From positions 220,155 through 284,154 of the forward strand of contig CAWINZ010000005.1 in assembly GCA_963837695.1 (NCBI GenBank): a stretch of DNA of 64,000 bases, written 5' to 3'. Position 1 is the stretch's first letter. Each line of letters begins with the position of its first letter. Positions 33,200 through 51,455 of the stretch are shown piece by piece. This DNA comes from an uncultured Solirubrobacterales bacterium. Its GTDB lineage: Bacteria > Actinomycetota > Thermoleophilia > Solirubrobacterales > 70-9. The notes beneath the pieces were generated by a model. That model saw only the letters and a program-made list of their open reading frames with translations. It did not search any database and had not been told where the DNA came from. Made by a program: the position numbers and the translations under genes.

Positions 33200-33218
33200 G
33201 CACTTCTCAAAGACCCAA

Positions 33219-33259
33219 CGCGCCCGACAGGATTCGAACCTGTGACCTTCGGTTTCGTA
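33219..33259 (-). repeat. att repeat R1: copy of the tRNA-Arg 3' half (outermost junction)
   Basis: cgcgcccgacaggattcgaacctgtgaccttcggtttcgta is identical to 51382..51422 of the intact tRNA. Confidence 0.85.
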
Positions 33260-33389
33260 ACCCGAGACGGTGGATCGGCTGGGCTACGTGGAGCCCGGTT
33301 TCAAGCGGTTTCCGGCGAATCGAGTCCCGCTGGGATCGGCTGGAATCTGTGGGGCATGTTGCCCCATTTGTTGCCCCAGGGATGGAGAC

Positions 33390-35445: not shown

Positions 35446-35869
35446 TCAGAGCTCGACCGCCTCATCGAGAACGCGGTCGCGCATGTAGGGCGACAGGCTG
35501 GCCTCGGTGACGACATCCACCTGGACCCCAAGGCGTTCCTCCAGGTCGTTAGACAGTGCGATCAGGTCAAACAAGGTCCGGCCCTCCGCCATGTCAACGA
35601 GAAGATCGAGATCGCTGGAGGCACCATGTTCCCCACGTCCGGTCGAACCGAACAAAGCGAACGTTGCCCGCCCCGTGGGCGGTAGCAATGCGGCGCACAT
35701 CCTTCCGAATCTCCGTCAGCTCCTCGATGCGCTCGAGCTCGTCGCGGTCGAGCCCGCCGGCGCGGCGCAAGCGCTTGGCCAACTGGCGTAGTCGCTCCGC
35801 GCGGTCGTTCGTCTCCTCGATCTCGTATCCCGCCTCCGCTTTCCTGGCAAGGACATCCGACCAGGGCAT
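35446..35869 (-). pseudogene. MNT-type nucleotidyltransferase (HEPN/MNT antitoxin-like), +1 frameshifted
   Basis: The N-terminal part (..IRKDVRRIATAHGAGNVR) is in frame 35594..35869. The catalytic part (LFGSTGRGEHGASSDLDLLV) is in frame 35446..35700. The frames join if one T of the run at 35654-35656 (minus-strand TTT) is removed. Confidence 0.6.
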
Positions 35870-36142
35870 CGGTTATTTGCTTGCCGCTGGCCGTCCTGCC
35901 GTAGGTTTTCCTCGTCGTCGGTCGCACAGACAACATGTATCCTAGAAGCTGTGGGCTACAAGCGGGTCAAGACCGAGCACGCTGGGGCTAAGAACGGGCT
36001 ACAACCCGCTGACCGGACCCCGTTCAGCGGTCCGATTTCAAGGGGTCGGGCCAGCCCCAGGCGTTGCCCCAGCGGCAATCTCGCACTGTTCGAGTGACCC
36101 TCGAAAGGCCGGAATTCCGCTCCACAAGCGGGATTCCGCCAA

Positions 36143-36184
36143 CGCGCCCGACAGGATTCGAACCTGTGACCTTCGGTTTCGTAG
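36143..36184 (-). repeat. att repeat R2: tRNA-Arg 3'-half copy flanked by both conserved arms (attP-like junction)
   Basis: 42 nt identical to 51382..51423. The conserved arm ~36054-36142 lies on one side and 36185-36304 on the other. Confidence 0.85.
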
Positions 36185-36317
36185 CCCGAGCCCGTGGATC
36201 GGCTGGGCTACGTGGAGCCCAGTTTCAAGCGGTTTCCGGCGAATCGAGTCCCGCTGGGATCGGCTGGAATCTGTGGGGCATGTTGCCCCAATTGTTGCCC
36301 CAGGAGGCTGATTCGGG

Positions 36318-36758
36318 TCACGATCCGGGGAGTTGGACGCACTCGAAGGCGAGGACCTCTGCGAGCTTGTCGAAGTGCGTGTCGCGGTGCAGAACCGCCA
36401 CCCCGCCGTGCTCGGCCGCCGCGGCGGCAACGAGTGCATCCGTGATGGGCACCCGGTGGTATCCGTCGCCGCGCTCGGCCAACTCGCCGACAGCGGCCAT
36501 CGCCGCGTCGGTCACGGCGCGATCGTTGCGAAGGATTCGCAGCGAATCGAGCTCGCTCTCGAGTTCGAGATACTCGGAGCTACTGCGGGCCGAGTAAAGA
36601 ATCTCCATCCGCACAATTGGTGTGATCCAGAGGCGATCGGCAAGGATTGCGTCGTCCACGAGCGAGCGAAGTTCATCGGGAAGCGAGGCGATACGCCACC
36701 ACGCCGAGGTGTCGGCGACGAAGGGCGCATCGCTGCGCAACAACTCCAAGGCGTTCAC
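36318..36758 (-). CDS. vapC: PIN-domain toxin VapC
   Basis: FVADTSAWW (first Asp), EILYSA, and ITDALVAAAAAEHGGVAVLHRDTHFD (last Asp), a typical PIN pattern. Confidence 0.8.
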   Translation of the reverse strand: MNALELLRSDAPFVADTSAWWRIASLPDELRSLVDDAILADRLWITPIVRMEILYSARSSSEYLELESELDSLRILRNDRAVTDAAMAAVGELAERGDGYHRVPITDALVAAAAAEHGGVAVLHRDTHFDKLAEVLAFECVQLPGS

Positions 36759-37345: not shown

Positions 37346-38317
37346 CTACTCGACCAGTCGCCGCAACTCGTCGGTAAGCCGCTGCTCAAGGTGCCTGATA
37401 GTGGAGTAACTGATGCATCTCTCACTTTGGACATCGAACTTCAGATCGGAACCGTCATGACGCAGCAGCACGGTGGGAACCTCGGCTCCCCAGGCGAATC
37501 CAACCTCCAAGTAGACATTGGGGTTGGCGTCCGTGAGATCCGCGACAACCAGCGTCGCCGAGCGGATTCTCTCCTTGATGCGTTCTGGAATGCTGCCGGT
37601 GAACGCCTGCTCGTCAATCCGCTCGCAGAGCAAGCCGCTCTTGTGCACCGCAGGTTCGATGGCATAGTGGAAGATGTCTTCGAATTCTTGTGAGAAGGGC
37701 ATCGCCACGAACGCATGGTCCCGAGTGGCGGCGGTCGCTTCCGTTGACCGGCGTAGCCCCTTTGAAATCTCGCCCGTGGAAGTGGAAGTCAGTGACCCCG
37801 TCAGGCGCGACGTGGGAATCGCTTCCTCAAGGCGGATGCGAAGCCGCTCGGCGCGCTGCTCGTCCAACTCAACGATAGAAACTCGTTTGAGACTGCCCGC
37901 GGTCCGCCCCTCAATCCCTTCGACAATCCCCGCAAGCTCCGCTTCAAAACAAGCGGCCTCATCCAATCCATAGCCGACTCCGTGCAGGGTCAGGGCCAGG
38001 TCTTGACAGTCTGGAAACTCTGCCACCGCAAGGGATACCGCCCGGCGCCCGAACAGGCGAATCTCCGTGTAGCCGAAATCCGAAAGGGGCGGCACACCCA
38101 AGAAAACCACATTAGATGGCCCTACCTTTTCGGGACTGCGCACCACTAGCTGACCTCCAGGCCGAAGGTCCATCTCTAAATCCAGTCCAAGCCGTTCCTT
38201 TGCCGCCGCATCCACGCCAAGTGAAACCTGGGCGTGCTTGAGTACGAGCACATCGGAGGTGATAGCCAAAACATCGGCCGGGTCGACGTCGATAGCCACT
38301 CCCTGCAACTCCACCAT
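37346..38317 (-). CDS. two-domain cargo protein: unknown N-domain plus nucleoside 2-deoxyribosyltransferase/TIR-like C-domain (defence-effector candidate)
   Basis: 323-aa ORF. The C-terminal HAFVAMPFSQEFEDIF...ATLVVADLTDANPNVYLEVGFAWGAEVPTVLL matches the Rossmannoid pattern F.aMPF ... aDlt..NpNV.yE.GyA.g...p. Confidence 0.7.
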   Translation of the reverse strand: MVELQGVAIDVDPADVLAITSDVLVLKHAQVSLGVDAAAKERLGLDLEMDLRPGGQLVVRSPEKVGPSNVVFLGVPPLSDFGYTEIRLFGRRAVSLAVAEFPDCQDLALTLHGVGYGLDEAACFEAELAGIVEGIEGRTAGSLKRVSIVELDEQRAERLRIRLEEAIPTSRLTGSLTSTSTGEISKGLRRSTEATAATRDHAFVAMPFSQEFEDIFHYAIEPAVHKSGLLCERIDEQAFTGSIPERIKERIRSATLVVADLTDANPNVYLEVGFAWGAEVPTVLLRHDGSDLKFDVQSERCISYSTIRHLEQRLTDELRRLVE

Positions 38318-38402: not shown

Positions 38403-39629
38403 TCAAGACCAAAACGAACCTCTCGCAATGGCGCATTGCGAGACCATTTCCAACGGCGGCGCCTCGTCGCCCGGCAGCAGATGCGTGTAGCGGGTCAGCG
38501 TGAAGGCGGGCGAGTGGTGGCCGAGGGCTCGGCTCAGTTGGAGGAGGTTGGTGCCTTGGCTGAGGTGGAGCGAGGCGAAGGTGTGGCGGAACGTGTGGAA
38601 GCCCGCCCAGGGGGTGCCTGCCTCCTCTGCGAGGGGCTTCAGGACGCGGCGACGGAGGTTGCCCGGGTCGAGCGGGCCTCCGGCTTCGTTGGGGAAGGCG
38701 AGGGCGGTCGAGTCCCGGTCGGGCTGGGCGGCGAGATGGTCGCGCAGGCTCGCCGCCACTGATGCCGGTAGGCGGACCTCGCGTCGGCCGTGCCTGCTCT
38801 TGGGCGGCTCGATCCGCTCGCGGACGATCGCTCGGCGGATGCAGACCTCGGGCTCTGGGCCGTCAAGTTGAAGGTGCAGGCGTTGGAGGGCGATCGCCTC
38901 GCTGATCCGCAGGCCGCAGCTCGCCAGGAGCTCGAAGAGCGGGCGGTGGCGCTCGGGGGCTGTCGCCAGGAGCGCTGAGAGCTGCTCGCGGCTGAAGACC
39001 TTGATCTCCTCGCCCTCGTCCTCGAGCCGCTCGCGCTGGGGCAGCGCGAGGCCCTGAGCGGGGTTGTGGCGGATCAGGCCCTCGCGCTTGGCGGTCGCCA
39101 GGGCGGCGCGGATCGGTATCGCGACGTTGGCGATCGTGCGGTCGCTGAGGCGCTTGCCCTGCTCCTGCTCGTCGGCGAGCCAGTCGAGGAAGCGGGCGAG
39201 CTGGTAGGCGCTCAGCTCGGTGAGCTTCAGCCTGCCGGAGAAATAGCGGCGGGCGTAGATGCGGATCAGGCGCCGGTATTCGTCGCGGGTGTTCTCGCGG
39301 AAGCCCCGGCGGCCCTGGCCCCGATAGCGCTCGACCCACTCCTCCAGGTAGCGCAGGAAGGAGATCGTCGTGCGCTCCTGCAGCTCGCCGCGGTCGCGGT
39401 CGGTCTCGCTCTCGCGCTTGATCCGCTTTGCCTCCTCGTAGGTGCGGGCGCTGCGCTTGCGCTGCCTGCCGGCGCTGCGGAAGACGCAGACGTAGCCGAT
39501 CACGTCGCCGCCGGCGCCGAGCCGCTTGAAGACGCCTGGCGTCTTGGTCTTCTGGAGCCGCCGCTTGTCACCGCAGCCTGGACCGGCCGCAAGGGCCGAC
39601 GTATCCTGGGAAACGCTCATGAGCATCAC
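38403..39629 (-). CDS. int: tyrosine recombinase / phage-type integrase (element E2)
   Basis: The C-terminal catalytic region has GLRISEA, HTFRHTFAS and GHHSPAFTLTRYTHL (R..HxxR..Y). Confidence 0.9.
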   Translation of the reverse strand: MMLMSVSQDTSALAAGPGCGDKRRLQKTKTPGVFKRLGAGGDVIGYVCVFRSAGRQRKRSARTYEEAKRIKRESETDRDRGELQERTTISFLRYLEEWVERYRGQGRRGFRENTRDEYRRLIRIYARRYFSGRLKLTELSAYQLARFLDWLADEQEQGKRLSDRTIANVAIPIRAALATAKREGLIRHNPAQGLALPQRERLEDEGEEIKVFSREQLSALLATAPERHRPLFELLASCGLRISEAIALQRLHLQLDGPEPEVCIRRAIVRERIEPPKSRHGRREVRLPASVAASLRDHLAAQPDRDSTALAFPNEAGGPLDPGNLRRRVLKPLAEEAGTPWAGFHTFRHTFASLHLSQGTNLLQLSRALGHHSPAFTLTRYTHLLPGDEAPPLEMVSQCAIARGSFWS

Positions 39630-39740
39630 CTCGTGAGCCGGGGGCGGGCCGTTAGCGCGGCGCCGCCCCGTTTTGCGTTGTCGGACAAGACGTTAACAGG
39701 AAGATGCGGCCTGTCAGCCTGCTCCAACGATGGAGAGATG

Positions 39741-39812
39741 GGTTCGCTATGGGGTTCGCACTGCGGTTCGCACTGTAGTTCGCACTGCGGTTCGCACTGC
39801 ACTTCGCATGAG
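39741..39812. repeat. six tandem 12-bp repeats (consensus gGTTCGCACTGc) upstream of int
   Basis: Units read directly: ggttcgctatgg, ggttcgcactgc, ggttcgcactgt, agttcgcactgc, ggttcgcactgc, acttcgcatgag. Confidence 0.85.
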
Positions 39813-40008
39813 CCGATGCCGAAACCGAGGCAAAGCCGCATTGGAAGAGGCTTTGCGGCGACCACGCTTTGCTGACTTCTATATGTCGAACTAGCTTCTT
39901 TCCAGATTCGCTGTCGGTTGCCCTCGGGCTCGCGGTCCGTCCGCGTCCGTCAGCCTCGCCGTGGCTCTGCTGATCTTCGCCTGCCGGTCCCCCCGGCGCG
40001 GCTCGTTG

Positions 40009-40305
40009 TCACTCGCCGCGGGTCTGTGCGTCGCTCGACGGCGGGCTGTCGATCTCGTAGCGCCCGTCCCCCGTTCCGACGAAGCTCGGCCTGTAGGAGA
40101 TGCCGTCGAGCAGCTCGGCGGGCGAGACCGAGAGCGCGCCTGCGAGTCTGACGACGACATCCAGGGTGGGGACGTTGATCTGCCGCTCGTATTTCCGGAC
40201 GGCGTCGCGGCTGAGCGAGGCGCGGAGCGCCAGCCCTTCCTGGGTGAGACCCGCACGCTTGCGGAGGCCGATCAGGTTCTCGGCGAAACGGGCCTGGAAG
40301 CTCAC
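40009..40305 (-). CDS. XRE-family helix-turn-helix regulator (second of two)
   Basis: ORF 40009..40371 trimmed to the GTG at 40305, which overlaps the upstream stop as GTGA. FAENLIGLRKRAGLTQEGLALRASLSRDAVRKYERQ is an HTH_3 pattern. Confidence 0.7.
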   Translation of the reverse strand: MSFQARFAENLIGLRKRAGLTQEGLALRASLSRDAVRKYERQINVPTLDVVVRLAGALSVSPAELLDGISYRPSFVGTGDGRYEIDSPPSSDAQTRGE

Positions 40306-40591
40306 GGCGCCTGCTGCGGATCGTCCACCTCGAAGCGGCCCTCCACGACCTCGACGTGTCCGGGCGTCCACTTGAAGCCGGCGAGGAGGTCGCCCACGGG
40401 GACCGAGACAGCGCCCGCGAGCCTGACGATCGTGTCGATCCTCGGCGTCCGCGCTCCCCGCTCCAGCAGCCCGATCGCCGTGCGATGGAGCCCGGCCCGG
40501 TAGCCGAGCTCTTCCTGAGAAGCCCAGCCTGCTCGCGGCAGCGGGCGAGGTTGCGGCCGAACTGGGCGGCGACCTCGGCTGAACGCTTCAA
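40302..40591 (-). pseudogene. XRE-family HTH gene with a -1 frameshift (identical lesion in the sister copy)
   Basis: FGRNLARCREQAGL is in one frame and SQEELGYRAGLHRTAIGLLERGARTPRIDTIVRLAGAVSV is in the next. The junction is at ~40514-40525 and the length is 290 nt. The TTG start overlaps the upstream stop as TTGA. Confidence 0.55.
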
Positions 40592-40977
40592 AGGAGAAGG
40601 CCCTCGGGCACTTCGGCTGGCCCGCCCTTGACCAGCGTGGCGACGATCACGCCGCTGCGGCTCGTGTGCCCGCCCTCGACCGTCCAGCGGTCGCTGATCT
40701 GGCCCGCCGTGAGGACCGGCATGCCGCCGCGCAGCTCCTCGACGTCCCGCCCAGAGCGACCCGCGGGCACTTCGATGAGGCAGGTGGCGCATCTCCAAAG
40801 CGACTGCGGCCGGTCGGGGTCGACCACCGGGAACTCGACCCGCAGGAGGGTCGTGCGCTCCCCGGCCGGATTGCGGCCCTCCTGGGGGTCGGCGCTCAGC
40901 CTGCCGGTGAGGACGGCGTGGTTGATCGCCGGAGGGGTCGATGCGGGCCCCGGCGCCCGGTGCTCTGCGGGACTCAT
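40588..40977 (-). CDS. SSB-like OB-fold protein
   Basis: INHAVLTGRLSADPQ..R.....ER..LLRVEF resembles the N-terminus of single-stranded DNA-binding proteins. Confidence 0.55.
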   Translation of the reverse strand: MSPAEHRAPGPASTPPAINHAVLTGRLSADPQEGRNPAGERTTLLRVEFPVVDPDRPQSLWRCATCLIEVPAGRSGRDVEELRGGMPVLTAGQISDRWTVEGGHTSRSGVIVATLVKGGPAEVPEGLLL

Positions 40978-41378
40978 GCCGAGCCCTGGCGGGTGCGGAG
41001 CTCGAGCAGCAGCTCCGTGCCCGTGTCGAGAGTGAGGTGATAGCGACGGCGGCTAACTTCCTCGTCTTCGCGGGATTCGCGCTCGTCCGGTCGCTCGGTC
41101 AGCGCGCCCCTGGCGTCGGCTCGCAAGCGCTCGAAGATCGCGGCCAGCTCCCCGGACGGGATCGTCAGCGGGATCTCGGAGCGGTCATCGGGACCCCAGC
41201 CGAGGTCGTTGAGCAGACGGAAGTCCTCGGCGAACTCCCTGGCGAGCCGCCCGGCGGTGTCGAAATCCCCGCGGTCGATCGCTATCCGGACGTCTCCGAG
41301 GGCGCCCAGGTGTTCAACAAGGAACCCGTAGACGGCGTCTCGCTTCTCGCCCGTGAGAGTGGCGGTCGGGTGGTGCAT
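40974..41378 (-). CDS. hypothetical 134-aa backbone protein, first gene next to att
   Basis: Good RBS (GGAAGGAGA). Clearly diverged paralogue of 50665..51069. Confidence 0.6.
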   Translation of the reverse strand: MHHPTATLTGEKRDAVYGFLVEHLGALGDVRIAIDRGDFDTAGRLAREFAEDFRLLNDLGWGPDDRSEIPLTIPSGELAAIFERLRADARGALTERPDERESREDEEVSRRRYHLTLDTGTELLLELRTRQGSA

Positions 41379-41690
41379 GGCGTCTCCTTCCGGTCGGGCA
41401 CCGAAAGAGCCGCCAGGGATGCCGCCGTCAGAACGCCACGGCGGTACCGTCTCTCTCGCATCGAAGGCTCGTACTTCGGTGCCGGCCCCGGGGCGTTAGC
41501 GCGCTGCCGGGGCGCTTCTTATTCGCGTTTGCGCGGCGAACGTAGGTGGACCGGGAACCCAGCGCAAGGCCTGGGATCGAACCTCACTCCGACCTCATGT
41601 TGCCCCAGGCGTTGCCCCAGCGGCAATCTCGCACTGTTCGAGTGACCCTCGAAAAGCCGCAATCCCGCTTCACAAGCGGGATTGCCGGAG

Positions 41691-41732
41691 CGCGCCCGAC
41701 AGGATTCGAACCTGTGACCTTCGGTTTCGTAG
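41691..41732 (-). repeat. att repeat R3: tRNA-Arg 3'-half copy flanked by both conserved arms
   Basis: 42 nt identical to 51382..51423. The arm 41596-41690 is identical in layout to 51287-51381. Confidence 0.85.
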
Positions 41733-41896
41733 CCTGACCCCGCAGACCCGCTGGGCTACGTGGAGCCCGGATTCAAGCGGTTTCCGGCGAATCGAGCTAC
41801 GTGGAGATCGGCTGGAATCCGTGGGGCTGCTTGCCCCATTTCTTGCCCCAGGGACCGAACGGAGTTAGCTTCGTCCCTGGCCGATACCATGAGGAC

Positions 41897-42085
41897 ATGG
41901 CTCATGCCACCAAGGCAGATGAATCCGTCGCCAAGCGCCGCCGCGCGGCGGCTGAGGAGATGCGCGGCATGTTTGCCCATGTCGCTCCCGGGGTGAGCTT
42001 GGCAGACGAGCTAATCGCCGACCGTCGAGCCGAGGTCCGCTCAGAAGAGCGGGCAGAGGCCGAGCGGCGACGTGCCAACGGCTGA
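41897..42085 (+). CDS. possible VapB-type antitoxin (62 aa)
   Basis: ORF 41801..42085 trimmed to MAHATKAD, because the upstream part lies in the att arm. Overlaps the vapC start. Confidence 0.45.
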   Translation: MAHATKADESVAKRRRAAAEEMRGMFAHVAPGVSLADELIADRRAEVRSEERAEAERRRANG

Positions 42086-42494
42086 GACCCCGGCGTCGAT
42101 TCTCGACGCCTCAGCACTGCTCGCCCTGCTCCAAGATGAGCCAGGAGCCGCCGCGGTGGTCGAGGCAATCGAAGCTGGCGCCGCCATCAGCACCGTCAAC
42201 CTCTCTGAGGTGCTGGCCAAGCTGGCCGAGCGAGGAGAGCATGTGCGGTCGACTATGGCCACGATCGGGCAAGCCGTCGACCAGGCCGACGGCGGGCTTC
42301 GGATCGAGCCCTTCACGGAAGAGGACGGCATCGAGGCCGCAGACCTCCGACCACGCTCAAAGAGCCAAGGCCTGTCCTTCGGCGACCGGGCGTGCCTCGC
42401 CCTGGCCGCCCGCTTCGAGGTGCCGGCGGTCACAGCGGATGGAGACTGGGCCGACCTGCCGAAAGTCGGAGTCGCCGTCAAGCTGATCCGGTGA
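42072..42494 (+). CDS. vapC: PIN-domain toxin VapC
   Basis: ILDASALLALLQDEPG (first Asp), NLSEV, and SFGDRACLALAARFEVPAVTADGDW, a typical PIN pattern. Confidence 0.8.
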   Translation: MPTAETPASILDASALLALLQDEPGAAAVVEAIEAGAAISTVNLSEVLAKLAERGEHVRSTMATIGQAVDQADGGLRIEPFTEEDGIEAADLRPRSKSQGLSFGDRACLALAARFEVPAVTADGDWADLPKVGVAVKLIR

Positions 42495-42787: not shown

Positions 42788-42940
42788 CCCGACCTGTGAC
42801 CTTCGGTTTCGCACTTGGACGGTCCGATTCGTAGCCCGAGCCGGGGGATCGGTTGGGCTACGTGGGGCGCGACTTCAATCGGTTTTCGGTCGATCGAGTC
42901 CCGCTGGGATCGGTTGGGCTACGTGGGGCATGTTGCCCAG
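42788..42940 (-). repeat. degenerate att plus arm (R4)
   Basis: cccgac[deletion]ctgtgaccttcggtttcg, then an 18-nt insertion, then cgtagcccgagcc..ggttgggctacgtgggg..catgttgccc. Recognisably related to R1-R3 plus the arm. Confidence 0.55.
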
Positions 42941-43099: not shown

Positions 43100-45247
43100 C
43101 TAAGCCGCCAGGGACCAGAGATTCCAATCTCCGGCCCCCTTCAACTCTAGCTTGCCCATTTTGGCCCAGTCGAAATCGTGGGCGTTGATCCTGACCCGAT
43201 CATCCGTTACCACCAGGTTCGGCCGCGCCTGATCGCAAATGCGAGCCGCGACGTCCACATCGCGGCCGCGGAGATTTCCGAATTGATCCTTTCTCGCCAC
43301 ACCTTTGGTGAGGCCGGCCCGCGCCACGAGCTTGTCGCTGCCCGGATCAATGACCAAGTCCCTAAGGCACTTGATCGCAGCCATCGGCTCCTCAAATGCA
43401 AGAAGAAAGCCGTCTCCCGTGTCGTTGATGCGCATGCCCTTGTATTTCTTGAGGAGGCTGCGCATGCGCTTCTCGTGTGCGTTCCACTCCAGGGCATAGG
43501 CTTTCTCACCAAGCCGTCCCTTCGCATCCGTTGCACCGGTGAGATCGGTGAACGCGATCACCGTCTCCACCTCTTCAGTGGATGCAAGATCTGAAGCGTC
43601 GTAGGACCGCGAGGCTACATAGGTGATGAACTGCGATTTGTCCGCCCTTCCTTTCGCCGACAGGTTGTGGAAGGACTTCACACTGCGAAACCCCGACTCT
43701 TCAAGCAAGCCGACAAGCTGTTTGCGTTTGAACGGCAGCACGTCGAACGTCCCGACTGGCTTTCCGCTGCTTGAGCGGATGTACTCAAGCGTTAGGACGT
43801 CGTTGTCGATACCGGGCAACTCTGGCATGCTCTTCGGTCGCGCCCGAATCGTGTTGCTGCAGTAGACCACGCGTCCCGGAAAGCGAAAGTCCGGCTTCGC
43901 CATCTGCCGACGCTCGTCGAACATCGTCGGGTAATTGCGCTCATCGACGATCAACAACCCTTCCGGTCGCAGTAGGTAGGCAAAGCGCGTCAGAACCGCT
44001 CGCACGTCGCTGACCGTGCGCAGGCAGCTCAACGAGTTGCCCAAGGCTAAAAGTATGTCGAAAGTCTCTGGCTCGGCCAGATGCTCAAAGTGGCGCCAAT
44101 CAAAGCGGGTCAGGCTGAGGGGCGACCCGCCTTCCCGCTCCGAAAGCTCGGTCGCATGTGCGATCAGCCTCGCATCGATCTCGTTCGAGACAACCCGGTG
44201 CCCTTTGGAAAGCAGGTACGCCGAATCGCAGCCGACCCCGGTGGCGGCGTCGAGGACTGTCGCCTGAGCGAGGCCAATTTCCTCGATCCTGGCCTCCACG
44301 AACGGGCCCAGTTTGGTTACCCTTCTTTCAGGCGCAACAAACTCGTCCCAGACGTCTGCGAGTAGCGGCTCGAACATGCTGTCGAGGCTCCAGAGGATGT
44401 GCTCCTGCAGATCCGTTGGCACGTCGTCGGTAACAATCGTGTCATTGTTGAGGCTGACCAGTTCCGCTTGTTCGACGAGGCGGGCCACGTATCGCAGATA
44501 TGCCCGGAACCTGTCATCGAAGGGGTAGACAAGCTCCAAACGCAATCTGTTGTTGTTCGGCTTGACGTTTTCCTCAAAAAGCAGTGCGCAGGTGTTCACC
44601 CACAGGCCGAGATCACCGGTCCACTCTTCGTTCAGGACAGCATCGTGAATCAGCGCGTGCTTCTGGGGCTCGATGCACAGAGGGGTGATGTGGTGCCGTT
44701 TGTGCTCTTGAAAATATCGCCTGGCAAGGTCCGGATTACTGTCGAAATCCGCCTGCAGCGCCTTTACGGATTGGGGGATGATTCTCACGGACCTGGGAGC
44801 GTGGCACTCATGATGCGCAACAGTTGAAGAGAGATCGTCGTGGTCCTCGGGATCGCCCTCTGCGAGGTTGCCAAGCAGAAAGGGGTGGACCTGGAGAAAG
44901 CGACTCGGTGGGTGCGAGTCCACCCCGATGTAGATGTCTTGGATGGTGCTGTAGAACAGCGAGACGACGGCCTCCATCTGGTGGAGCGGAATCCGGATCT
45001 CCTGCTGTGCAGGGATGGCGTCGCCTTTCCCTCTGAGCAGGTCGACGAGCTGCTGCCCTGAGTTATCGAGGAACGCCTCCATGATCTCCTCTGCGACTCG
45101 CTGGTCATGGGCGATGGGACGCCGTCGCCCATTGGGAATCTCGATGCCGAGCTTCGACAACAGTTCAATGAACCGGAGCTCCAGTTTGGAGGAAGATTCT
45201 TTGTCTCGTCGAGAGTCAGACATAAAACACAGAAGTTCGTTTACCAA
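43100..45247 (-). CDS. three-module fusion protein: unknown N-domain, GNMT-like class I SAM methyltransferase, class III nucleotide cyclase
   Basis: MTase motifs: VLDAATGVGCDS, VVSNEID, FDILLALGNSLSCL, RPEGLLIVDERNY. Cyclase motifs: VIAFTDLTGAT, INDTGDGFLLAF, ARAGLTKG, GRDVDVAARI, ELKGAG. The listed start is TTG; the ATG at 45223 (MSDSRRDK) is the likelier start. Confidence 0.85.
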   Translation of the reverse strand: MVNELLCFMSDSRRDKESSSKLELRFIELLSKLGIEIPNGRRRPIAHDQRVAEEIMEAFLDNSGQQLVDLLRGKGDAIPAQQEIRIPLHQMEAVVSLFYSTIQDIYIGVDSHPPSRFLQVHPFLLGNLAEGDPEDHDDLSSTVAHHECHAPRSVRIIPQSVKALQADFDSNPDLARRYFQEHKRHHITPLCIEPQKHALIHDAVLNEEWTGDLGLWVNTCALLFEENVKPNNNRLRLELVYPFDDRFRAYLRYVARLVEQAELVSLNNDTIVTDDVPTDLQEHILWSLDSMFEPLLADVWDEFVAPERRVTKLGPFVEARIEEIGLAQATVLDAATGVGCDSAYLLSKGHRVVSNEIDARLIAHATELSEREGGSPLSLTRFDWRHFEHLAEPETFDILLALGNSLSCLRTVSDVRAVLTRFAYLLRPEGLLIVDERNYPTMFDERRQMAKPDFRFPGRVVYCSNTIRARPKSMPELPGIDNDVLTLEYIRSSSGKPVGTFDVLPFKRKQLVGLLEESGFRSVKSFHNLSAKGRADKSQFITYVASRSYDASDLASTEEVETVIAFTDLTGATDAKGRLGEKAYALEWNAHEKRMRSLLKKYKGMRINDTGDGFLLAFEEPMAAIKCLRDLVIDPGSDKLVARAGLTKGVARKDQFGNLRGRDVDVAARICDQARPNLVVTDDRVRINAHDFDWAKMGKLELKGAGDWNLWSLAA

Positions 45248-45414: not shown

Positions 45415-47415
45415 TCAATTTTTATCCTCGCTGGTTGCCGGGGCAAACCAGTGCCGCAGGGTCCGCCTCACACGCGGGGTTAGATTGGCGGCAAGCCAGG
45501 CGCGAGCAACCAAGAAATTCCAACCGGTCACAAGGCTGACGACGCCGCTGAGGGTAAGGAGGAACACAAGTCCCGAGCCGAGGGGAACTAGCTTTGACCA
45601 CGATGAGGGAAAGAGGCCCTGGGCGGCTGCGGCACAGGCGGCGATAAGCAGCAAGAGGGCGAATCCAAAGGCCGTCCACGAGATCGCGGAAGCCAACTGG
45701 TCGGCACGAGCGTCGAGACGGTCGGCGTGGCGGGTGGCGACGCGCTCGGCCCGCGCAGCCTCGGCGCTCGCGCGATCCTTTTCGGCCGCTACGGCGGCGT
45801 CGGAACGCTTGCGAAGCGCTCGCTCCCGCTTAAGCTCGTCCTCCACCTCCGCCCGCGCTGCCTGCTCGGCACGACGAAGAACCTCAGTGATGGTGCCAGC
45901 AGCGACAGCCTCAACGTCGCCGTCGGTGGCATTCATCAACTCGAGGCGGGCATCAGGCGAGAACAGCAGGAGACCGACCTGCTCCTCGCTAAGCTCGCCG
46001 CGCTCTTGTAGACGGCGGATCTCGGTCAGGTATTTGCGCCAGACATCCTCAGGCGGATTCAGGGCCGCATAGCTGATTGCGATGATCTGCCGACGAGGAA
46101 GATCAGAGGCTTGCGATGGGTTCATCAGCCAGACGATTGCGGCAAGGCTGTAGTCAGACATGCAGACCGGCACTGAACGGTGCCCGAAAATCTCGGCGAA
46201 GAAGGCGCGAGAGACGTGAGCTAGCGTGGTGTTGGTCGTAACAAGCAGCGCGTCGGCGCTCTCGATGTGGCGGCGAACCTCACCGCTGCGAAGCCGATAG
46301 ATCGCAGCCAGGGAGTCGAGATCCTTGACCATGGTGCCGTGAAGACGGTAGTGGACGCCATCTTTCAACGCCCTTCCCAACTCCTTCTCCGAAAGTTCAA
46401 TCTCTTCCGTGCGCTCGGGCGTGCCGACAACTTCGATCGCACGAGCGTCGAGCCGTTCGCTGAGCGCCGCGATGTCCATCTCGACATCGCTGCGGCTTAG
46501 GCTCTTCGACGCGAAGTAGTCGACCACATCGCCAGGGACATGGTCCTTCTTTCGTCCGGTGCGGTAGGTAGCAGCCGCGCCATCGAGGACTCCCTCGACC
46601 TCATGCAGGGTGTGCTCGAAGATGCGCAGCTTGGCGTCCTCTCCCGCCAGCAAGTCAACCAGTTCTTCGACCGGCTCCCTGTACTGCTCCTCGGCGTATC
46701 CCAGTGCGCGCAGAACGACTGGCGTATCGAGGTAGACCTCAACATCGGACAAGCGAGCACGGCCACCCGAGAACGTCTCCGGCAGAAAAAGAACGTTGGC
46801 CAACATGGATCCCTTGACAATCGTCGCCAAGTACTCGAAGGCCTGCGGCTCCTTGTGACAAAGATCGAGGACGAACCGACTGGTGACAACCGCGCCCTCG
46901 GACTCGATCTTAGGCAGCTCGACGACCGGTTCGCCGTCCACCACCGCGCCAAGTACCGGCTCAGCGAGAACCTCGACGTAGCCGAGTAGGGCCCGCTCAG
47001 CCTGCTCCTCGCTCCACTCGCGCCCCACGCCAGCAGCGAAATCGACCAGGAGGCCAACCAGATGGTTGTGCTGGCGGACAACATCTTCCCGCTCGGAGCC
47101 GAGGTCGAACTCGCGCAAAGCCTCCGGAATGCGTTCATAGGCACCGTGGCGACGACGAAGCAACCCATCGCGGGACATGCGGCCAAGGATCGTCTGCAGG
47201 GCACCCTGCGGGATGTGAAGGCCGAAGTCGCTGGCAACCAAAGCCTTGGTGTCGGGCAACGAAATCTTCTCGTGCTCCCCGCGGCGAATGCAGTCAGCGA
47301 CAATCGGGACGAAGTTGGCTATGTAGTCCTTGTCCTCATCCCAGTTGACCTTGATCACGGCCAAGGCCGAAATCGCCTTGAGAAGATCCACTGGAAGCAC
47401 GGCGGGCGCACTCAT
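45415..47415 (-). CDS. 666-aa protein of unknown function with Ala/Arg/Glu-rich coiled coil and two C-terminal TM helices (effector candidate)
   Basis: Long clean ORF in lower-GC DNA. The C-terminus has AISWTAFGFALLLLIAACAAAAQGLF and LVPLGSGLVFLLTLSGVVSLVTGW. Confidence 0.8.
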   Translation of the reverse strand: MSAPAVLPVDLLKAISALAVIKVNWDEDKDYIANFVPIVADCIRRGEHEKISLPDTKALVASDFGLHIPQGALQTILGRMSRDGLLRRRHGAYERIPEALREFDLGSEREDVVRQHNHLVGLLVDFAAGVGREWSEEQAERALLGYVEVLAEPVLGAVVDGEPVVELPKIESEGAVVTSRFVLDLCHKEPQAFEYLATIVKGSMLANVLFLPETFSGGRARLSDVEVYLDTPVVLRALGYAEEQYREPVEELVDLLAGEDAKLRIFEHTLHEVEGVLDGAAATYRTGRKKDHVPGDVVDYFASKSLSRSDVEMDIAALSERLDARAIEVVGTPERTEEIELSEKELGRALKDGVHYRLHGTMVKDLDSLAAIYRLRSGEVRRHIESADALLVTTNTTLAHVSRAFFAEIFGHRSVPVCMSDYSLAAIVWLMNPSQASDLPRRQIIAISYAALNPPEDVWRKYLTEIRRLQERGELSEEQVGLLLFSPDARLELMNATDGDVEAVAAGTITEVLRRAEQAARAEVEDELKRERALRKRSDAAVAAEKDRASAEAARAERVATRHADRLDARADQLASAISWTAFGFALLLLIAACAAAAQGLFPSSWSKLVPLGSGLVFLLTLSGVVSLVTGWNFLVARAWLAANLTPRVRRTLRHWFAPATSEDKN

Positions 47416-47614: not shown

Positions 47615-48829
47615 TCAAGGCTCTTCGCCACGGCGTCGGTGCGACAGATCGAGCGCCGGCGCCTCGTCGCCGGGCAGCAGATGCGTGTAGCGGGTCAGCG
47701 TGAAGGCGGGCGAGTGGTGGCCGAGGGCTCGGCTCAGTTGGAGGAGGTTGGTGCCCTGGGCCAGATGGAGCGAGGCGAAGGTGTGGCGGAACGTGTGGAA
47801 GCCCGCCCATGGGGCGCCTGCCTCCTCTGCGAGGGGCTTGAGGACGCGGCGACGGAGGTTGCCCGGGTGGAGCGGGCCTCCGGCCTCATTGGGGAAGGCG
47901 AGGGCGGTCGAGTCCTGATCGGGCTGGGCGGCGAGATGGTCGCGCAAGCTCGCCGCCACCGATGCCGGTAGGCGGACCTCGCGTCGGCCGTGCCTGCTCT
48001 TGGGCGGCTCGATCCGATCGCGGACGATGGCGCGGCGGATGCAGACCTCGGGCTCGGGGCCGTCAAGCTGAAGGTGCAGGCGCTGGAGGGCGAGCGCCTC
48101 GCTGATCCGCAGGCCGCAGCTCGCCAGGAGCTCGAAGAGCGGGCGGTGGCGCTCGGGGGCTGTCGCCAGGAGCGCTGAGAGCTGCTCGCGGCTGAAGACC
48201 TTGATCTCCTCGCCCTCGTCCTCGAGCCGCTCGCGCTGGGGCAGCGCGAGGCCCTGAGCGGGGTTGTGGCGGATCAGGCCCTCGCGCTTGGCGGTCGCCA
48301 GGGCGGCGCGGATCGGTATCGCGACGTTGGCGATCGTGCGGTCGCTGAGGCGCTTGCCCTGCTCCTGCTCGTCGGCGAGCCAGTCGAGGAAGCGGGCGAG
48401 CTGGTAGGCGCTCAGCTCGGTGAGCTTCAGCCTGCCGGAGAAATAGCGGCGGGCGTAGATGCGGATCAGGCGCCGGTATTCGTCGCGGGTGTTCTCGCGG
48501 AAGCCCCGGCGGCCCTGGCCCCGATAGCGCTCGACCCACTCCTCCAGGTAGCGCAGGAAGGAGATCGTCGTGCGCTCCTGCAGCTCGCCGCGGTCGCGGT
48601 CGGTCTCGCTCTCGCGCTTGATCCGCTTTGCCTCCTCGTAGGTGCGGGCGCTGCGCTTGCGCTGCCTGCCGGCGCTGCGGAAGACGCAGACGTAGCCGAT
48701 CACGTCGCCGCCGGCGCCGAGCCGCTTGAAGACGCCTGGCGTCTTGGTCTTCTGGAGCCGCCGCTTGTCACCGCAGCCTGGACCGGCCGCAAGGGCCGAC
48801 GTATCCTGGGAAACGCTCATGAGCATCAC
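47615..48829 (-). CDS. int: tyrosine recombinase / phage-type integrase (element E3b)
   Basis: Differs from the E2 integrase by six substitutions plus a different C-terminal tail. Confidence 0.9.
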   Translation of the reverse strand: MMLMSVSQDTSALAAGPGCGDKRRLQKTKTPGVFKRLGAGGDVIGYVCVFRSAGRQRKRSARTYEEAKRIKRESETDRDRGELQERTTISFLRYLEEWVERYRGQGRRGFRENTRDEYRRLIRIYARRYFSGRLKLTELSAYQLARFLDWLADEQEQGKRLSDRTIANVAIPIRAALATAKREGLIRHNPAQGLALPQRERLEDEGEEIKVFSREQLSALLATAPERHRPLFELLASCGLRISEALALQRLHLQLDGPEPEVCIRRAIVRDRIEPPKSRHGRREVRLPASVAASLRDHLAAQPDQDSTALAFPNEAGGPLHPGNLRRRVLKPLAEEAGAPWAGFHTFRHTFASLHLAQGTNLLQLSRALGHHSPAFTLTRYTHLLPGDEAPALDLSHRRRGEEP

Positions 48830-48940
48830 CTCGTGAGCCGGGGGCGGGCCGTTAGCGCGGCGCCGCCCCGTTTTGCGTTGTCGGACAAGACGTTAACAGG
48901 AAGATGCGGCCTGTCAGCCTGCTCCAACGATGGAGAGATG

Positions 48941-49012
48941 GGTTCGCTATGGGGTTCGCACTGCGGTTCGCACTGTAGTTCGCACTGCGGTTCGCACTGC
49001 ACTTCGCATGAG
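48941..49012. repeat. six tandem 12-bp repeats (same array as 39741..39812)
   Basis: Identical sequence at an offset of 9200 nt. Confidence 0.85.
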
Positions 49013-49070
49013 CCGATGCCGAAACCGAGGCAAAGCCGCATTGGAAGAGGCTTTGCGGCGACCACGCTTT

Positions 49071-49723
49071 GCTGACTTCTATATGTCGAACTAGCTTCTT
49101 TCCAGATTCGCTGTCGGTTGCCCTCGGGCTCGCGGTCCGTCCGCATCCGTCAGCCTCGCCGTGGCTCTGCTGATCTTCGCCTGCCGGTCCCCCCCGGCGC
49201 GGCTCGTCGTCACTCGCCGCGCGTCGCCCCCATCCGGCTCCGACGCGGTTTCCGCTGGGGTTTACCCAGACGTTGACACCGGGGTTGCCCGTGCGGTTGA
49301 CACAGCCGATCGACCGGGGACGTGCGAAGCCGCCTGTGGCGCGGCGTTGCGACGACTCCCGTTCGCTGACATCTATTTGTCGAACCGATCAAGCGGGAGG
49401 CCTGCCAGCGGCAGTCAGAGCGCTTCGTTGCATGCTCGTCTTGCGGCTCGTTTCGTGGCTCGTTTCGTAGCTCGTTTCGTAGCTCGTTTCGTAGCTCGTT
49501 TCGTGGCTCGCACGAACCGGAGTCGGTGGCGGCGCAAAGTCGCTTGCCATCTGGCATTGCGGCCGTGCCGCTTCGCTGACATCTATCTGTGGAACTAGCT
49601 TCTTTCCAGATTCGCTGTCGGTTGCCTCAGGCTCGCGGACCGTCCGCGTCCGTCAGCCTCGCCGTGGCTCTGCTGATCTTCGCCTGCCGGTCCCCCCGGC
49701 GCGGCTCGTTGTCACTCGCCGCG
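49071..49723. repeat. ~150-bp direct repeats (49071-49221 and 49575-49723) bracketing a ~350-bp insert absent from E2
   Basis: Both copies align to the single E2 segment at ~39871-40021 (gctgac.tctat.tgt.gaactagcttctttccagattcgctgtcggttgcc...). Confidence 0.8.
49445..49516. repeat. second, different 12-bp tandem array ((g/a)GCTCGTTTCGT x5 plus one degenerate unit)
   Basis: Units read directly: ggctcgtttcgt x2, agctcgtttcgt x3, ggctcgcacgaa. Confidence 0.85.
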
Positions 49724-50008
49724 GGTCTGTGCGTCGCTCGACGGCGGGCTGTCGATCTCGTAGCGCCCGTCCCCCGTTCCGACGAAGCTCGGCCTGTAGG
49801 AGATGCCGTCGAGCAGCTCGGCGGGCGAGACCGAGAGCGCGCCTGCGAGTCTGACGACGACATCCAGGGTGGGGACGTTGATCTGCCGCTCGTATTTCCG
49901 GACGGCGTCGCGGCTGAGCGAGGCGCGGAGCGCCAGCCCTTCCTGGGTGAGACCCGCACGCTTGCGGAGGCCGATCAGGTTCTCGGCGAAACGGGCCTGG
50001 AAGCTCAC
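49712..50008 (-). CDS. XRE-family HTH regulator (identical to 40009..40305)
   Basis: The listed ORF 49712..50074 is identical in protein sequence to the E2 copy. Trimmed in the same way. Confidence 0.7.
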   Translation of the reverse strand: MSFQARFAENLIGLRKRAGLTQEGLALRASLSRDAVRKYERQINVPTLDVVVRLAGALSVSPAELLDGISYRPSFVGTGDGRYEIDSPPSSDAQTRGE

Positions 50009-50294
50009 GGCGCCTGCTGCGGATCGTCCACCTCGAAGCGGCCCTCCACGACCTCGACGTGTCCGGGCGTCCACTTGAAGCCGGCGAGGAGGTCGCCCAC
50101 GGGGACCGAGACAGCGCCCGCGAGCCTGACGATCGTGTCGATCCTCGGCGTCCGCGCTCCCCGCTCCAGCAGCCCGATCGCCGTGCGATGGAGCCCGGCC
50201 CGGTAGCCGAGCTCTTCCTGAGAAGCCCAGCCTGCTCGCGGCAGCGGGCGAGGTTGCGGCCGAACTGGGCGGCGACCTCGGCTGAACGCTTCAA
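50005..50294 (-). pseudogene. XRE-family HTH gene with the same -1 frameshift as 40302..40591
   Basis: Same DNA at an offset of 9703 (cttcctgagaagcccagcct at 50211-50230). Confidence 0.55.
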
Positions 50295-50668
50295 AGGAGA
50301 AGGCCCTCGGGCACTTCGGCTGGCCCGCCCTTGACCAGCGTGGCGACGATCACGCCGCTGCGGCTCGTGTGCCCGCCCTCGACCGTCCAGCGGTCGCTGA
50401 TCTGGCCCGCCGTGAGGACCGGCATGCCGCCGCGCAGCTTCTCGACCTCCCGCCGACCCGCCGGGACTTCGACCAGGCAGCTCGCGCAGCGCCACAGCGA
50501 GCGCGGGCAGTCGGGGTCGGTCACTGGGAACTCGATCCGCAGAAGCGTCACGCGCTCGCCCACGGGGCTGCGGCCCTCCTGAGGGTCGGCGCTCAGCCTG
50601 CCGGTGAGGACGGCGTGGTTGATCTCGGGCGGCCCTCCCGTGGGGAGCGGAGCGCTGCCCGCGATCAC
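50291..50668 (-). CDS. SSB-like OB-fold protein (mosaic paralogue of 40588..40977)
   Basis: The C-terminal half is identical to the E2 copy. The N-terminal half is diverged and 4 aa shorter. Confidence 0.55.
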   Translation of the reverse strand: MIAGSAPLPTGGPPEINHAVLTGRLSADPQEGRSPVGERVTLLRIEFPVTDPDCPRSLWRCASCLVEVPAGRREVEKLRGGMPVLTAGQISDRWTVEGGHTSRSGVIVATLVKGGPAEVPEGLLL

Positions 50669-51069
50669 TCCGCTTCCTCGCGCCTGCGGATCTCGAGCAG
50701 CACTTCGGCGCCCGCGTCGAGGACCAACTCGTAGCGCTGACGATTGGCCTCGTCGACCTCGCGGGCCTCATGCTCGTCCGCCGACTCGCCCAGGGCGCCC
50801 TGGGCGTCGCCGCGCAGCCGGTTCATGATCGCCGTCAACTCGCCGGGCGGAATCGTCAGCGGGACCGCTATGCGCTCGTCCGGTCCCCAGCCGATGTCAT
50901 CGAGCAGGCGGAAGTCCTCGGCGAACTCCCTGGCAAGCCGCCTGGCGGTTTCGACGTCCCCGCGGTCGATTGCTATCCGCACGTCTCCGAGGCCGCCCAA
51001 ATGCTCAATCAGGAGCTCGTGGACGGCATCTCGTTTCTTGCCGGTGATCACTGCGACCACCTCGGTCAT
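50665..51069 (-). CDS. hypothetical 134-aa backbone protein (diverged paralogue of 40974..41378)
   Basis: ORF trimmed to MTEVVAVITGKKRD, which follows the RBS GGAAGGAGA. Confidence 0.6.
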   Translation of the reverse strand: MTEVVAVITGKKRDAVHELLIEHLGGLGDVRIAIDRGDVETARRLAREFAEDFRLLDDIGWGPDERIAVPLTIPPGELTAIMNRLRGDAQGALGESADEHEAREVDEANRQRYELVLDAGAEVLLEIRRREEAE

Positions 51070-51349
51070 GGCGTTCTCCTTCCGGTCGGGCACCGAAAGA
51101 GCCGCCGCGGATGCCGCCCCCATAGGGCTACGGCGGTACCGTCTCTCCCGCATCGAAGGTGATCCCTTCGGTGCCGGCCCCGGGGCGTTTGCGCGCTGCC
51201 GGGGCGCTTTTCTTCAGTTGTCGCGGCCGAACGTAGGTGGACGGGAGCGCCGTCTCAAGGCCCGCCGCCGACCCTCGCTCGCTTCTCATGTTGCCCCAGG
51301 CGTTGCCCCAGCGGCAATCTCGCACTGTTCGAGTGACCCTCGAAAAGCC

Positions 51350-51376
51350 GCAATCCCGCTTCACAAGCGGGATTGC
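51350..51376 (-). terminator. 10-bp stem hairpin just downstream of tRNA-Arg (element-borne; also present at R2 and R3)
   Basis: gcaatcccgc / ttcacaa / gcgggattgc read directly. Confidence 0.5.
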
Positions 51377-51381
51377 CGGAG

Positions 51382-51455
51382 CGCGCCCGACAGGATTCGA
51401 ACCTGTGACCTTCGGTTTCGTAGACCGACGCTCTATCCAACTGAGCTACGGGCGC
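51382..51455 (-). tRNA. tRNA-Arg (anticodon ACG), integration target
   Basis: Hand-folded 74-nt cloverleaf: acceptor GCGCCCG/CGGGCGC, anticodon arm TCGGT-CTACGAA-ACCGA, T arm ACAGG-TTCGAAT-CCTGT. CCA is not encoded. Confidence 0.9.

Follow-up and report, generated by a model that had tools for sequence, protein, structure and literature searches.

A very widespread standalone gene of mobile elements, found in a tRNA-Arg island of a Solirubrobacterales bacterium, encodes a predicted membrane-hairpin protein with a likely PIN-like core

What does a large protein with a soluble body and a hydrophobic C-terminus do between an integrase gene and a nucleotide cyclase gene? This question is raised by a 64,000-nucleotide stretch (the window) of contig CAWINZ010000005.1, positions 220,155 to 284,154 of the forward strand, from an uncultured Solirubrobacterales bacterium (assembly GCA_963837695.1), where a gene for a 666-amino-acid (666-aa) protein is followed on the same strand by a gene for a 715-aa methyltransferase-cyclase fusion. 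A first-pass annotation, made from the DNA letters alone, had taken the 666-aa protein for the partner and effector of the cyclase fusion. Our analysis led to a different answer. The 666-aa protein belongs to an uncharacterised, very widespread family of standalone mobile-element genes, and we tentatively believe that it is a horizontally mobile, membrane-tethered, PIN-like metal-dependent nuclease that serves to exclude phages or plasmids, a reading, drawn by inference, that falls a little short of what we would call probable. The coordinates of all features are collected in Table 1.

The open reading frame (ORF) is a real gene. Its G+C content by codon position (0.70/0.44/0.73) is coding-like, and a word-indexed search returned 62 homologue clusters, most of them full length at 640–690 aa. 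At E ≤ 1e-3 the family comprised at least 5,540 representative clusters (50% identity), of which 2,728 passed E ≤ 1e-30, and the best 150 clusters all measured about 640–700 aa. Database entries call its members "hypothetical protein", except for one spurious DUF1761 label. No family was found when the query and diverse homologues were scanned against Pfam, NCBIfam, PADLOC and PHROGs. For example, the PADLOC v2.0 hidden Markov models of defence and candidate (PDC) genes gave only noise for the 666-aa protein and seven diverse homologues (two from E. coli and one each from Klebsiella, Enterococcus, Hymenobacter, Arthrobacter and Paenibacillus), and none of the PHROG models matched any member tested. 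Similarly, Foldseek against the viral structures of BFVD found nothing for the 666-aa protein, sequence-profile searches of the PDB returned noise only, whether the query was the full-length protein or any one of three regions, and keyword searches of the literature found no description of a family combining a winged helix-turn-helix (wHTH), a PIN-like domain, a stalk and a C-terminal hairpin. A NOV_C/DUF3883 match at residues 309–358 lay under the cut-off and was disregarded. One 4.7-kb metagenome contig (P0059) matches the family over residues 1–468 and continues with a truncated receiver domain and a LuxR helix-turn-helix; a fusion to a response regulator was rejected, as the homology stops abruptly inside the truncated receiver domain, and P0059 is probably a rearrangement or an assembly chimera and no true domain variant.

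Residue numbers in this text are those of the true protein; alignment A1 and the first AlphaFold2 (AF2) model (m2c74fe280083) lack Met1 and are numbered one lower. Conservation was read from an alignment of the query with 193 homologues of 600–720 aa taken from the clusters above (194 members, clusters at 50% identity or less). The full-length AF2 model, built on 40 homologues, had a mean predicted local distance difference test (pLDDT) score of 77.7 and showed helices with a beta-hairpin at about residues 9–100, a helical part at about 106–210, an alpha/beta domain at about 226–431, a second helical part at about 448–497, and then a long helix. The N-terminus had been described from the letters as winged-helix-like, and the model agrees: it places a recognition helix and wing at about residues 70–96, with LQTILGRMSRDGLLRRRHGAYERI (residues 73–96) falling on the third helix and the beta-hairpin wing. 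Winged-helix proteins were weak among the Foldseek matches (2co5, target TM-score (TMt) 0.57; 2g7u; 7kk0; IclR and MarR proteins), and HTH_24 and MarR_2 were each matched by 1 of 40 family members. The helical region that follows is closed by the motif T198-x-V-K-G202-x-M-L205-A-N-x-L-x-L-P212, with G202 at 100% and L205 at 98%, which was used as the search pattern for homologue loci. Beyond the alpha/beta domain, the helical sub-domain of residues 432–505 conserves P433, L439-P440, A446, A450-A451, P454 and W459. The motifs TxVKGxMLANxLxLP (residues 198–212, window 46780–46824) and PxxAxDLPRxQIIAxSYAALNP (residues 433–454, window 46054–46119) are among the most conserved of the family, and both fall in the lowest-confidence parts of the two AF2 models. 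We speculated that they may act as an interface, lid or regulatory element whose placement is beyond the reach of a monomer model.

The alpha/beta domain is where the candidate active site lies. Both AF2 models, the full-length one and a separate one of residues 218–505 (pLDDT 83.7, predicted TM-score 0.73), have a core of five strands alternating with helices. The first-pass annotation had compared two segments with strands of PIN nucleases, and this comparison held up: in the five-stranded domain, DVEVYLDTPVV forms strand 1 and ALLVTTN forms strand 4, and PIN nucleases were the best Foldseek matches of the core. Searched against the PDB, the full model matched best the VapC-type PAE0151 (2fe1, probability 1.00, TMt 0.60) and the Mycobacterium tuberculosis VapC 7vwo_A (TMt 0.58), with the HARP protein-only RNase P and Exo1 also among the top matches. 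The model of residues 218–505 gave the same ranking (2fe1, E 9e-3; 7vwo_A, TMt 0.59; 7og5_A, a HARP RNase P, TMt 0.56), and over both searches the TMt of 2fe1 was 0.56–0.60.

The conserved residues are consistent with this fold. Six residues, G202, D230, E272, D365, R376 and W429, were invariant in the 194 members, and T231, T393, N395, E343, P333, E251 and E385 were conserved in at least 95%. It has been reported that the active-site residues of PIN-like nucleases lie after strand 1 (S1), after S2, at the N-terminus of helix 4 and after S4, with the fourth acidic residue usually after S2 and with Ser, Thr or Asn assisting (Matelska et al. 2017, PMC5499597). In the 666-aa protein, D230 follows strand 1 (with T231 next to it, 95%), E272 follows strand 2, and D365 opens the helix before strand 4 within D-x-x-S-L-A-A-I, which is like the D..A.A of VapC. 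The candidate active site fits three of the four acidic positions of PIN nucleases. Strand 4 is followed by V-T-T-N, in which T393 and N395 reach 96%. D421 after strand 5 is present in 88% of members, and we speculated that it might take the place of the missing acid of strand 4.

Several results weigh against an active PIN nuclease and against its use in exclusion. Nearly all PIN-like nucleases have Asp or Glu after strand 4, where 96% of the family has Asn (N395), and because of this replacement the core could be catalytically altered or inactive. No Foldseek match of the core reached E < 1e-3 (the best was 9e-3). The query had no Pfam PIN match, PIN_3 was matched by 1 of 40 members (E 1.2e-3), the PDB sequence-profile search of the core found nothing, and hhalign against a 37-sequence VapC alignment gave a probability of 0.1, the same as with a 3-sequence VapC alignment. 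Searches with jackhmmer and hmmsearch for PIN relatives over about 1 Mb of homologue loci recovered the seed sequences only. As for the genomic settings, no family member was found in 50,697 sequenced phage genomes; the 150 nearest neighbours were spread over 115 Pfam families and included only 4 integrases and some 4 restriction-modification methyltransferases, so that the association with defence is moderate; and in Arthrobacter the family gene adjoins ribonucleotide reductase genes. Taken with the structural matches, we consider the PIN-like fold likely and an active nuclease core somewhat less likely than the fold. Because both the sequence-profile tests and the acidic position of strand 4 fail, the family is not filed here as a confirmed PIN family member.

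The core is followed by a long helix, which AF2 draws as a single unbroken helix (model residues 505–596). An Ala/Arg/Glu coiled coil had been placed at residues 545–600. The long charged helix stood, with 46% charged residues, but it begins earlier (506–577), and the coiled coil found no support. The 3.5-residue hydrophobic periodicity was absent (query z −0.95, family median −0.42, 5% of members above z 2), and with this lack of heptad periodicity a canonical coiled coil is not supported. Acid-to-base pairs at i to i+3/4 were modestly enriched, and the single-alpha-helix test was suggestive at most. The segment looks more like a single charged helix, that is, a long charged stalk.

Two hydrophobic helices had been expected in the last 60 or so residues. 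By hydropathy, two such segments were present at about residues 578–602 and 612–637; the hairpin together with its basic tail takes up about 90 residues, more than had been proposed. Two hydrophobic segments were found in the last 130 residues of 168 of the 194 members, and one segment in 22. No part of the protein is less conserved than the hairpin region (24% mean column identity, with only G631 conserved). We judge from the alignment that the hairpin is a conserved feature and no chance hydrophobic stretch, because the two segments persist in most members despite this low identity. By the positive-inside rule, the basic tail is predicted to be cytoplasmic, which would give the hairpin an N-in/C-in topology.

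According to a rival explanation, the 666-aa protein would be an abortive-infection membrane effector whose hairpin oligomerises into a pore or channel when triggered, and the wHTH/PIN-like body would be a sensor or regulator and no nuclease. Many known defence systems use transmembrane effectors (PMC9122126), the Asn after strand 4 could mean an inactive PIN domain, and the C-terminal helix and hairpin gave weak, generic two-transmembrane or channel matches in Pfam (DUF2207_C in 13, MCU in 5 and Bestrophin-like in 3 of 46 members, best E 3.7e-4). However, these matches were all under the curated cut-offs, the hairpin region is the part that varies most, and an invariant acidic triad would be difficult to account for if the core neither catalysed a reaction nor bound metal. 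We regard a pore-forming effector as unlikely.

Members of the family were found in Thermoleophilia, Acidimicrobiia, Arthrobacter, Chloroflexota, Nitrospirota, Acidobacteriota, Planctomycetota, Elusimicrobia, Spirochaetota, bacteria of the candidate phyla radiation (CPR), Desulfobacterota, Beta- and Gammaproteobacteria, Bacteroidota and Bacillota. All-vs-all clustering of the ORFs within 6 kb found no conserved neighbour; the sole recurring neighbours were the ribonucleotide reductase genes, which come from Arthrobacter synteny. Across 54 loci there was no conserved adjacent gene of any kind, antitoxin genes included. The family is present on 12 plasmids. For example, the Enterococcus faecium plasmid copy has insertion sequence (IS) elements on either side, the Klebsiella plasmid copy lies between rep and resolvase genes, and the Hymenobacter plasmid copy adjoins a type III restriction-modification system and CHAT proteins. 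One homologue locus holds HEPN/MNT toxin-antitoxin genes, a SNIPE-family gene and an integrase, and other loci hold FtsK/SpoIIIE (L003) or Schlafen-AlbA with RNase H.

The E. coli homologues, which include WP_204691543.1 from FDAARGOS_1337, WP_052904798.1 and WP_096936374.1, belong to the family over their full length (hhalign probability 100, E 1.5e-51, 626 columns), and their copies lie inside P2-like prophages. The commoner copy is always between ogr and gpD. Another lies between the tail sheath and tail-fibre assembly genes, the site at which P2 carries its exclusion gene fun(Z). Among the P2 tail genes there is a site already known as a hotspot for defence genes (PMC13586616). From these locations, a role in conflict or defence is plausible. 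At the ogr–gpD locus (L061–L068, e.g. L064 8187–8516), an ORF of about 109 aa without a Pfam match usually follows on the same strand, and a small ORF is also found downstream of the Hymenobacter plasmid copy (L057 8123–8536).

The same locations could be explained by a gene that serves its element, namely a membrane-anchored DNA-binding regulator or processing factor for the element's own maintenance, transfer or immunity. The N-terminal winged helix would suit such a factor, and so would the integrase that the gene directly adjoins both in the window and in a related genome (L053), the rep and resolvase genes of the Klebsiella plasmid and the FtsK/SpoIIIE transfer gene of L003. On the other hand, the carriers are unrelated (tyrosine-integrase islands, IS-flanked plasmid segments, P2-like prophages and chromosomal sites near ribonucleotide reductase genes) and no common element function is evident among them, and in P2-like prophages the gene sits in variable accessory loci and not among the core genes. 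We consider this housekeeping role more doubtful still than the pore.

We return to the exclusion nuclease, for which the following mechanism is proposed. The C-terminal hairpin would fix the protein to the cytoplasmic membrane so that its N- and C-termini both face the cytoplasm. The charged helix, some 70 residues long and about 10 nm if helical throughout, would act as a rigid spacer that keeps the soluble body just under the membrane, where the winged-helix and helical module would bind nucleic acid or restrain the nuclease. The PIN-like domain would then cut invading nucleic acid, that is, phage or plasmid DNA or transcripts, near the entry point, and confinement to the membrane would spare the chromosome. 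As a single-gene cargo, such a protein could benefit islands, plasmids and P2-like prophages by excluding their competitors.

The neighbouring 715-aa gene was examined in the same way. It forms its own family of about 30 clusters, and its methyltransferase is glycine/sarcosine-N-methyltransferase-like. The gap between the two genes is 167–191 bp, with no terminator predicted in it, and co-transcription here is possible. When the 715-aa protein was searched by tblastn over 49 distinct homologue loci, a cyclase-like domain occurred within 10 kb in 1 of them. That locus (L030, 4890–5402 on the reverse strand) has the cyclase domain only, at 29% identity to the C-terminus of the 715-aa protein, 4.6 kb off and on the opposite strand. 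The related genome L053 encodes a 98%-identical orthologue of the 666-aa protein, and its gene occupies the same place in the chromosome, where pyruvate kinase, DUF4442, enoyl-CoA hydratase, small genes, two helix-turn-helix genes, the integrase and the 666-aa orthologue follow one another. The two genomes share 92% DNA identity from the integrase through the 666-aa gene, ending about 105 bp past its stop, and after this point L053 has a PemK toxin-antitoxin pair in place of the cyclase. In three contexts examined, homologues of the 715-aa protein sit alone among relaxase, integrase, HicAB and VapC genes, with no 666-like neighbour.

The proposed partnership with the cyclase fusion was accordingly dropped. 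There is no conserved partnership, because the adjacency is missing in 48 of 49 loci and in L053, and because the cyclase family occurs alone. These comparisons make an obligate two-gene system very unlikely, and we take the 715-aa gene to be independent cargo with no conserved partner. The first-pass annotation was right that the 666-aa protein is unlike the compact PycTM effectors: Pfam gave no cNMP_binding or other ligand-domain match at E ≤ 1, and there is no conserved adjacency to a cyclase. A Pycsar-like pair, in which the 715-aa protein makes a nucleotide signal that activates the 666-aa protein, could appeal to the close same-strand arrangement, to the position of both genes in one island module bounded by the tRNA and the 42.8-kb repeat, and to the cyclase-like domain of L030, but it is highly improbable in view of the missing adjacency, the solitary cyclases, the lack of a known ligand-sensor domain and the lack of any match of the 715-aa cyclase to the PADLOC PycC or CD-NTase models. 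The remaining probability belongs to functions outside the readings named here.

The window has about 70% G+C overall and 60–63% across 42–48 kb. Besides the tRNA 3'-half copies given in Table 1, a repeat of about 160 nt occurs at 33217–33379, 36141–36303, 41691–41851 and 42805–42938, and there are two integrase modules, 94–99% identical, at 38403–41850 and 47615–51430. Because of the tRNA 3'-half copies, the repeats and the second near-identical integrase module, we read the sequence from 32.5 to 51.4 kb as island modules stacked in tandem at tRNA-Arg(ACG). The integrase and the 666-aa gene are the block that the window and L053 have in common, with the 666-aa gene as the first cargo after the integrase; between the shared flanks, L053 holds a different cargo set. 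For this locus, our results remove a false "cyclase + effector" system and put in its place a tRNA-Arg island stacked with independent cargo genes.

Two further observations concern the integrase modules. The first cargo after the integrase in the second module is a 323-aa gene (37346–38317, reverse strand), which had a weak nucleoside 2-deoxyribosyltransferase-like match (E 1.2e-3) and nothing else; it is another candidate conflict gene. At 39729–39820 and 48929–49020, 100–190 nt upstream of the integrase starts, at least five head-to-tail 12-nt units (GGTTCGCACTGC-like) are present, and these units could be arm-type or regulatory binding sites.

Table 1. Features of the 666-aa gene and of the island around it, in window coordinates
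Feature	Position	Strand	Basis or remark
666-aa gene	45415..47415	-	ATG start, 666 codons + stop; standalone member of a large uncharacterised family
N-terminal domain with winged helix-turn-helix, residues 1–100	47116..47415	-	AF2 secondary structure, weak Foldseek matches
Helical region, residues 101–217	46765..47115	-	ends in a conserved, low-confidence motif
Alpha/beta domain of PIN-like topology with two helical inserts, residues 218–431	46123..46764	-	AF2, Foldseek, conservation
Conserved helical sub-domain, residues 432–505	45901..46122	-	AF2 and conservation; partly low confidence
Ala/Glu/Arg-rich long helix (stalk), residues 506–577	45685..45900	-	AF2; continuous into first transmembrane helix
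Predicted membrane hairpin, two hydrophobic helices with a loop of about 9 residues, residues 578–637	45505..45684	-	Kyte-Doolittle windows 2.1 and 2.0
Basic amphipathic tail (5 Arg/Lys), residues 638–666 + stop	45415..45504	-	sequence
715-aa protein (707 aa from first ATG)	43100..45247	-	N-domain of about 290 aa without assignment, S-adenosylmethionine (SAM) methyltransferase, class III cyclase-like domain
Tyrosine integrase	47615..48829	-	Pfam Phage_integrase E 3.5e-16; directly upstream of the 666-aa gene
tRNA-Arg(ACG), island integration site	51381..51455	-	3'-half copies at about 41.7 kb and 36.1 kb
Toxin-antitoxin cargo: VapC PIN toxin, likely VapB upstream	41801-42494	+	
Second VapC and MNT-type nucleotidyltransferase, same island	36318-36758, 35446-35700	-, -	

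Compared with known PIN-like nucleases (VapC PAE0151/2fe1, M. tuberculosis VapC 7vwo, HARP RNase P and FEN/Exo1), the 666-aa family resembles them in its predicted five-stranded alpha/beta/alpha core and shares the Asp after strand 1, the Glu after strand 2, the Asp before strand 4 and T-x-(D/N) after strand 4, and these nucleases are its top Foldseek matches. It differs from them in the missing profile match, in the Asn that follows strand 4, in helical inserts that add some 70 residues, and in a core that stands between an N-terminal winged helix and a stalk with a membrane hairpin. Unlike type II VapBC, it has no adjacent antitoxin gene. The YacL type (PIN.COG4956), with four N-terminal transmembrane helices, PIN and TRAM, is the only membrane-linked PIN group in the 2017 PIN catalogue (PMC5499597). 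Its transmembrane helices are N-terminal, its PIN is canonical in Pfam and joined to TRAM, and its distribution is housekeeping-like; no similarity of the 666-aa protein to it was detected. The Pycsar PycTM and the CBASS two-transmembrane/SLATT effectors also have transmembrane helices as part of a defence protein. However, these effectors are small, carry a nucleotide-binding or SLATT domain and always stand beside a cyclase, and none of the three applies to the 666-aa protein.

The proposed logic has two experimentally studied precedents, both built from unrelated domains. ShdA of the Shield system, an RmuC nuclease bound to the membrane, is sufficient for defence by itself and lowers transformation (PMC10270631). 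The 666-aa protein, as predicted, shares with it the general concept, whereas it has no RmuC domain (Pfam, PADLOC), another topology and another nuclease fold. SNIPE, a GIY-YIG nuclease bound to the membrane, cuts phage DNA while it is being injected, and SNIPE without its transmembrane part is toxic and binds the nucleoid (bioRxiv 10.1101/2025.11.03.685801). Like SNIPE, the 666-aa protein is encoded by a single gene in mobile or defence loci and would follow the same logic of membrane anchor, DNA-binding module and nuclease module. The two proteins are not homologous, as no DUF4041 or T5orf172/GIY-YIG Pfam match was found, and SNIPE has one N-terminal transmembrane helix in contrast to the C-terminal hairpin behind a long stalk; the analogy is functional only.

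By this analogy, the whole family may be a very widespread and so far unrecognised single-protein immune or exclusion system in which a stalk-held PIN-like nuclease destroys entering nucleic acid, a broader claim that we hold with more reserve than the reading of the single protein. If it is true, the "spatial self/non-self" strategy of SNIPE would extend to another nuclease fold and to most bacterial phyla, CPR bacteria and Actinomycetota included. Thousands of "hypothetical proteins" would gain a function, among them copies from E. coli prophages and from clinical plasmids of E. faecium and Klebsiella, and membrane-localised nucleases would be a general, repeatedly invented way to tell self from incoming DNA. 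Native E. coli versions in the accessory loci of P2-like prophages open the family to direct tests. In this study, we believe that the 666-aa protein can be predicted to work like SNIPE and ShdA while being a member of neither family.

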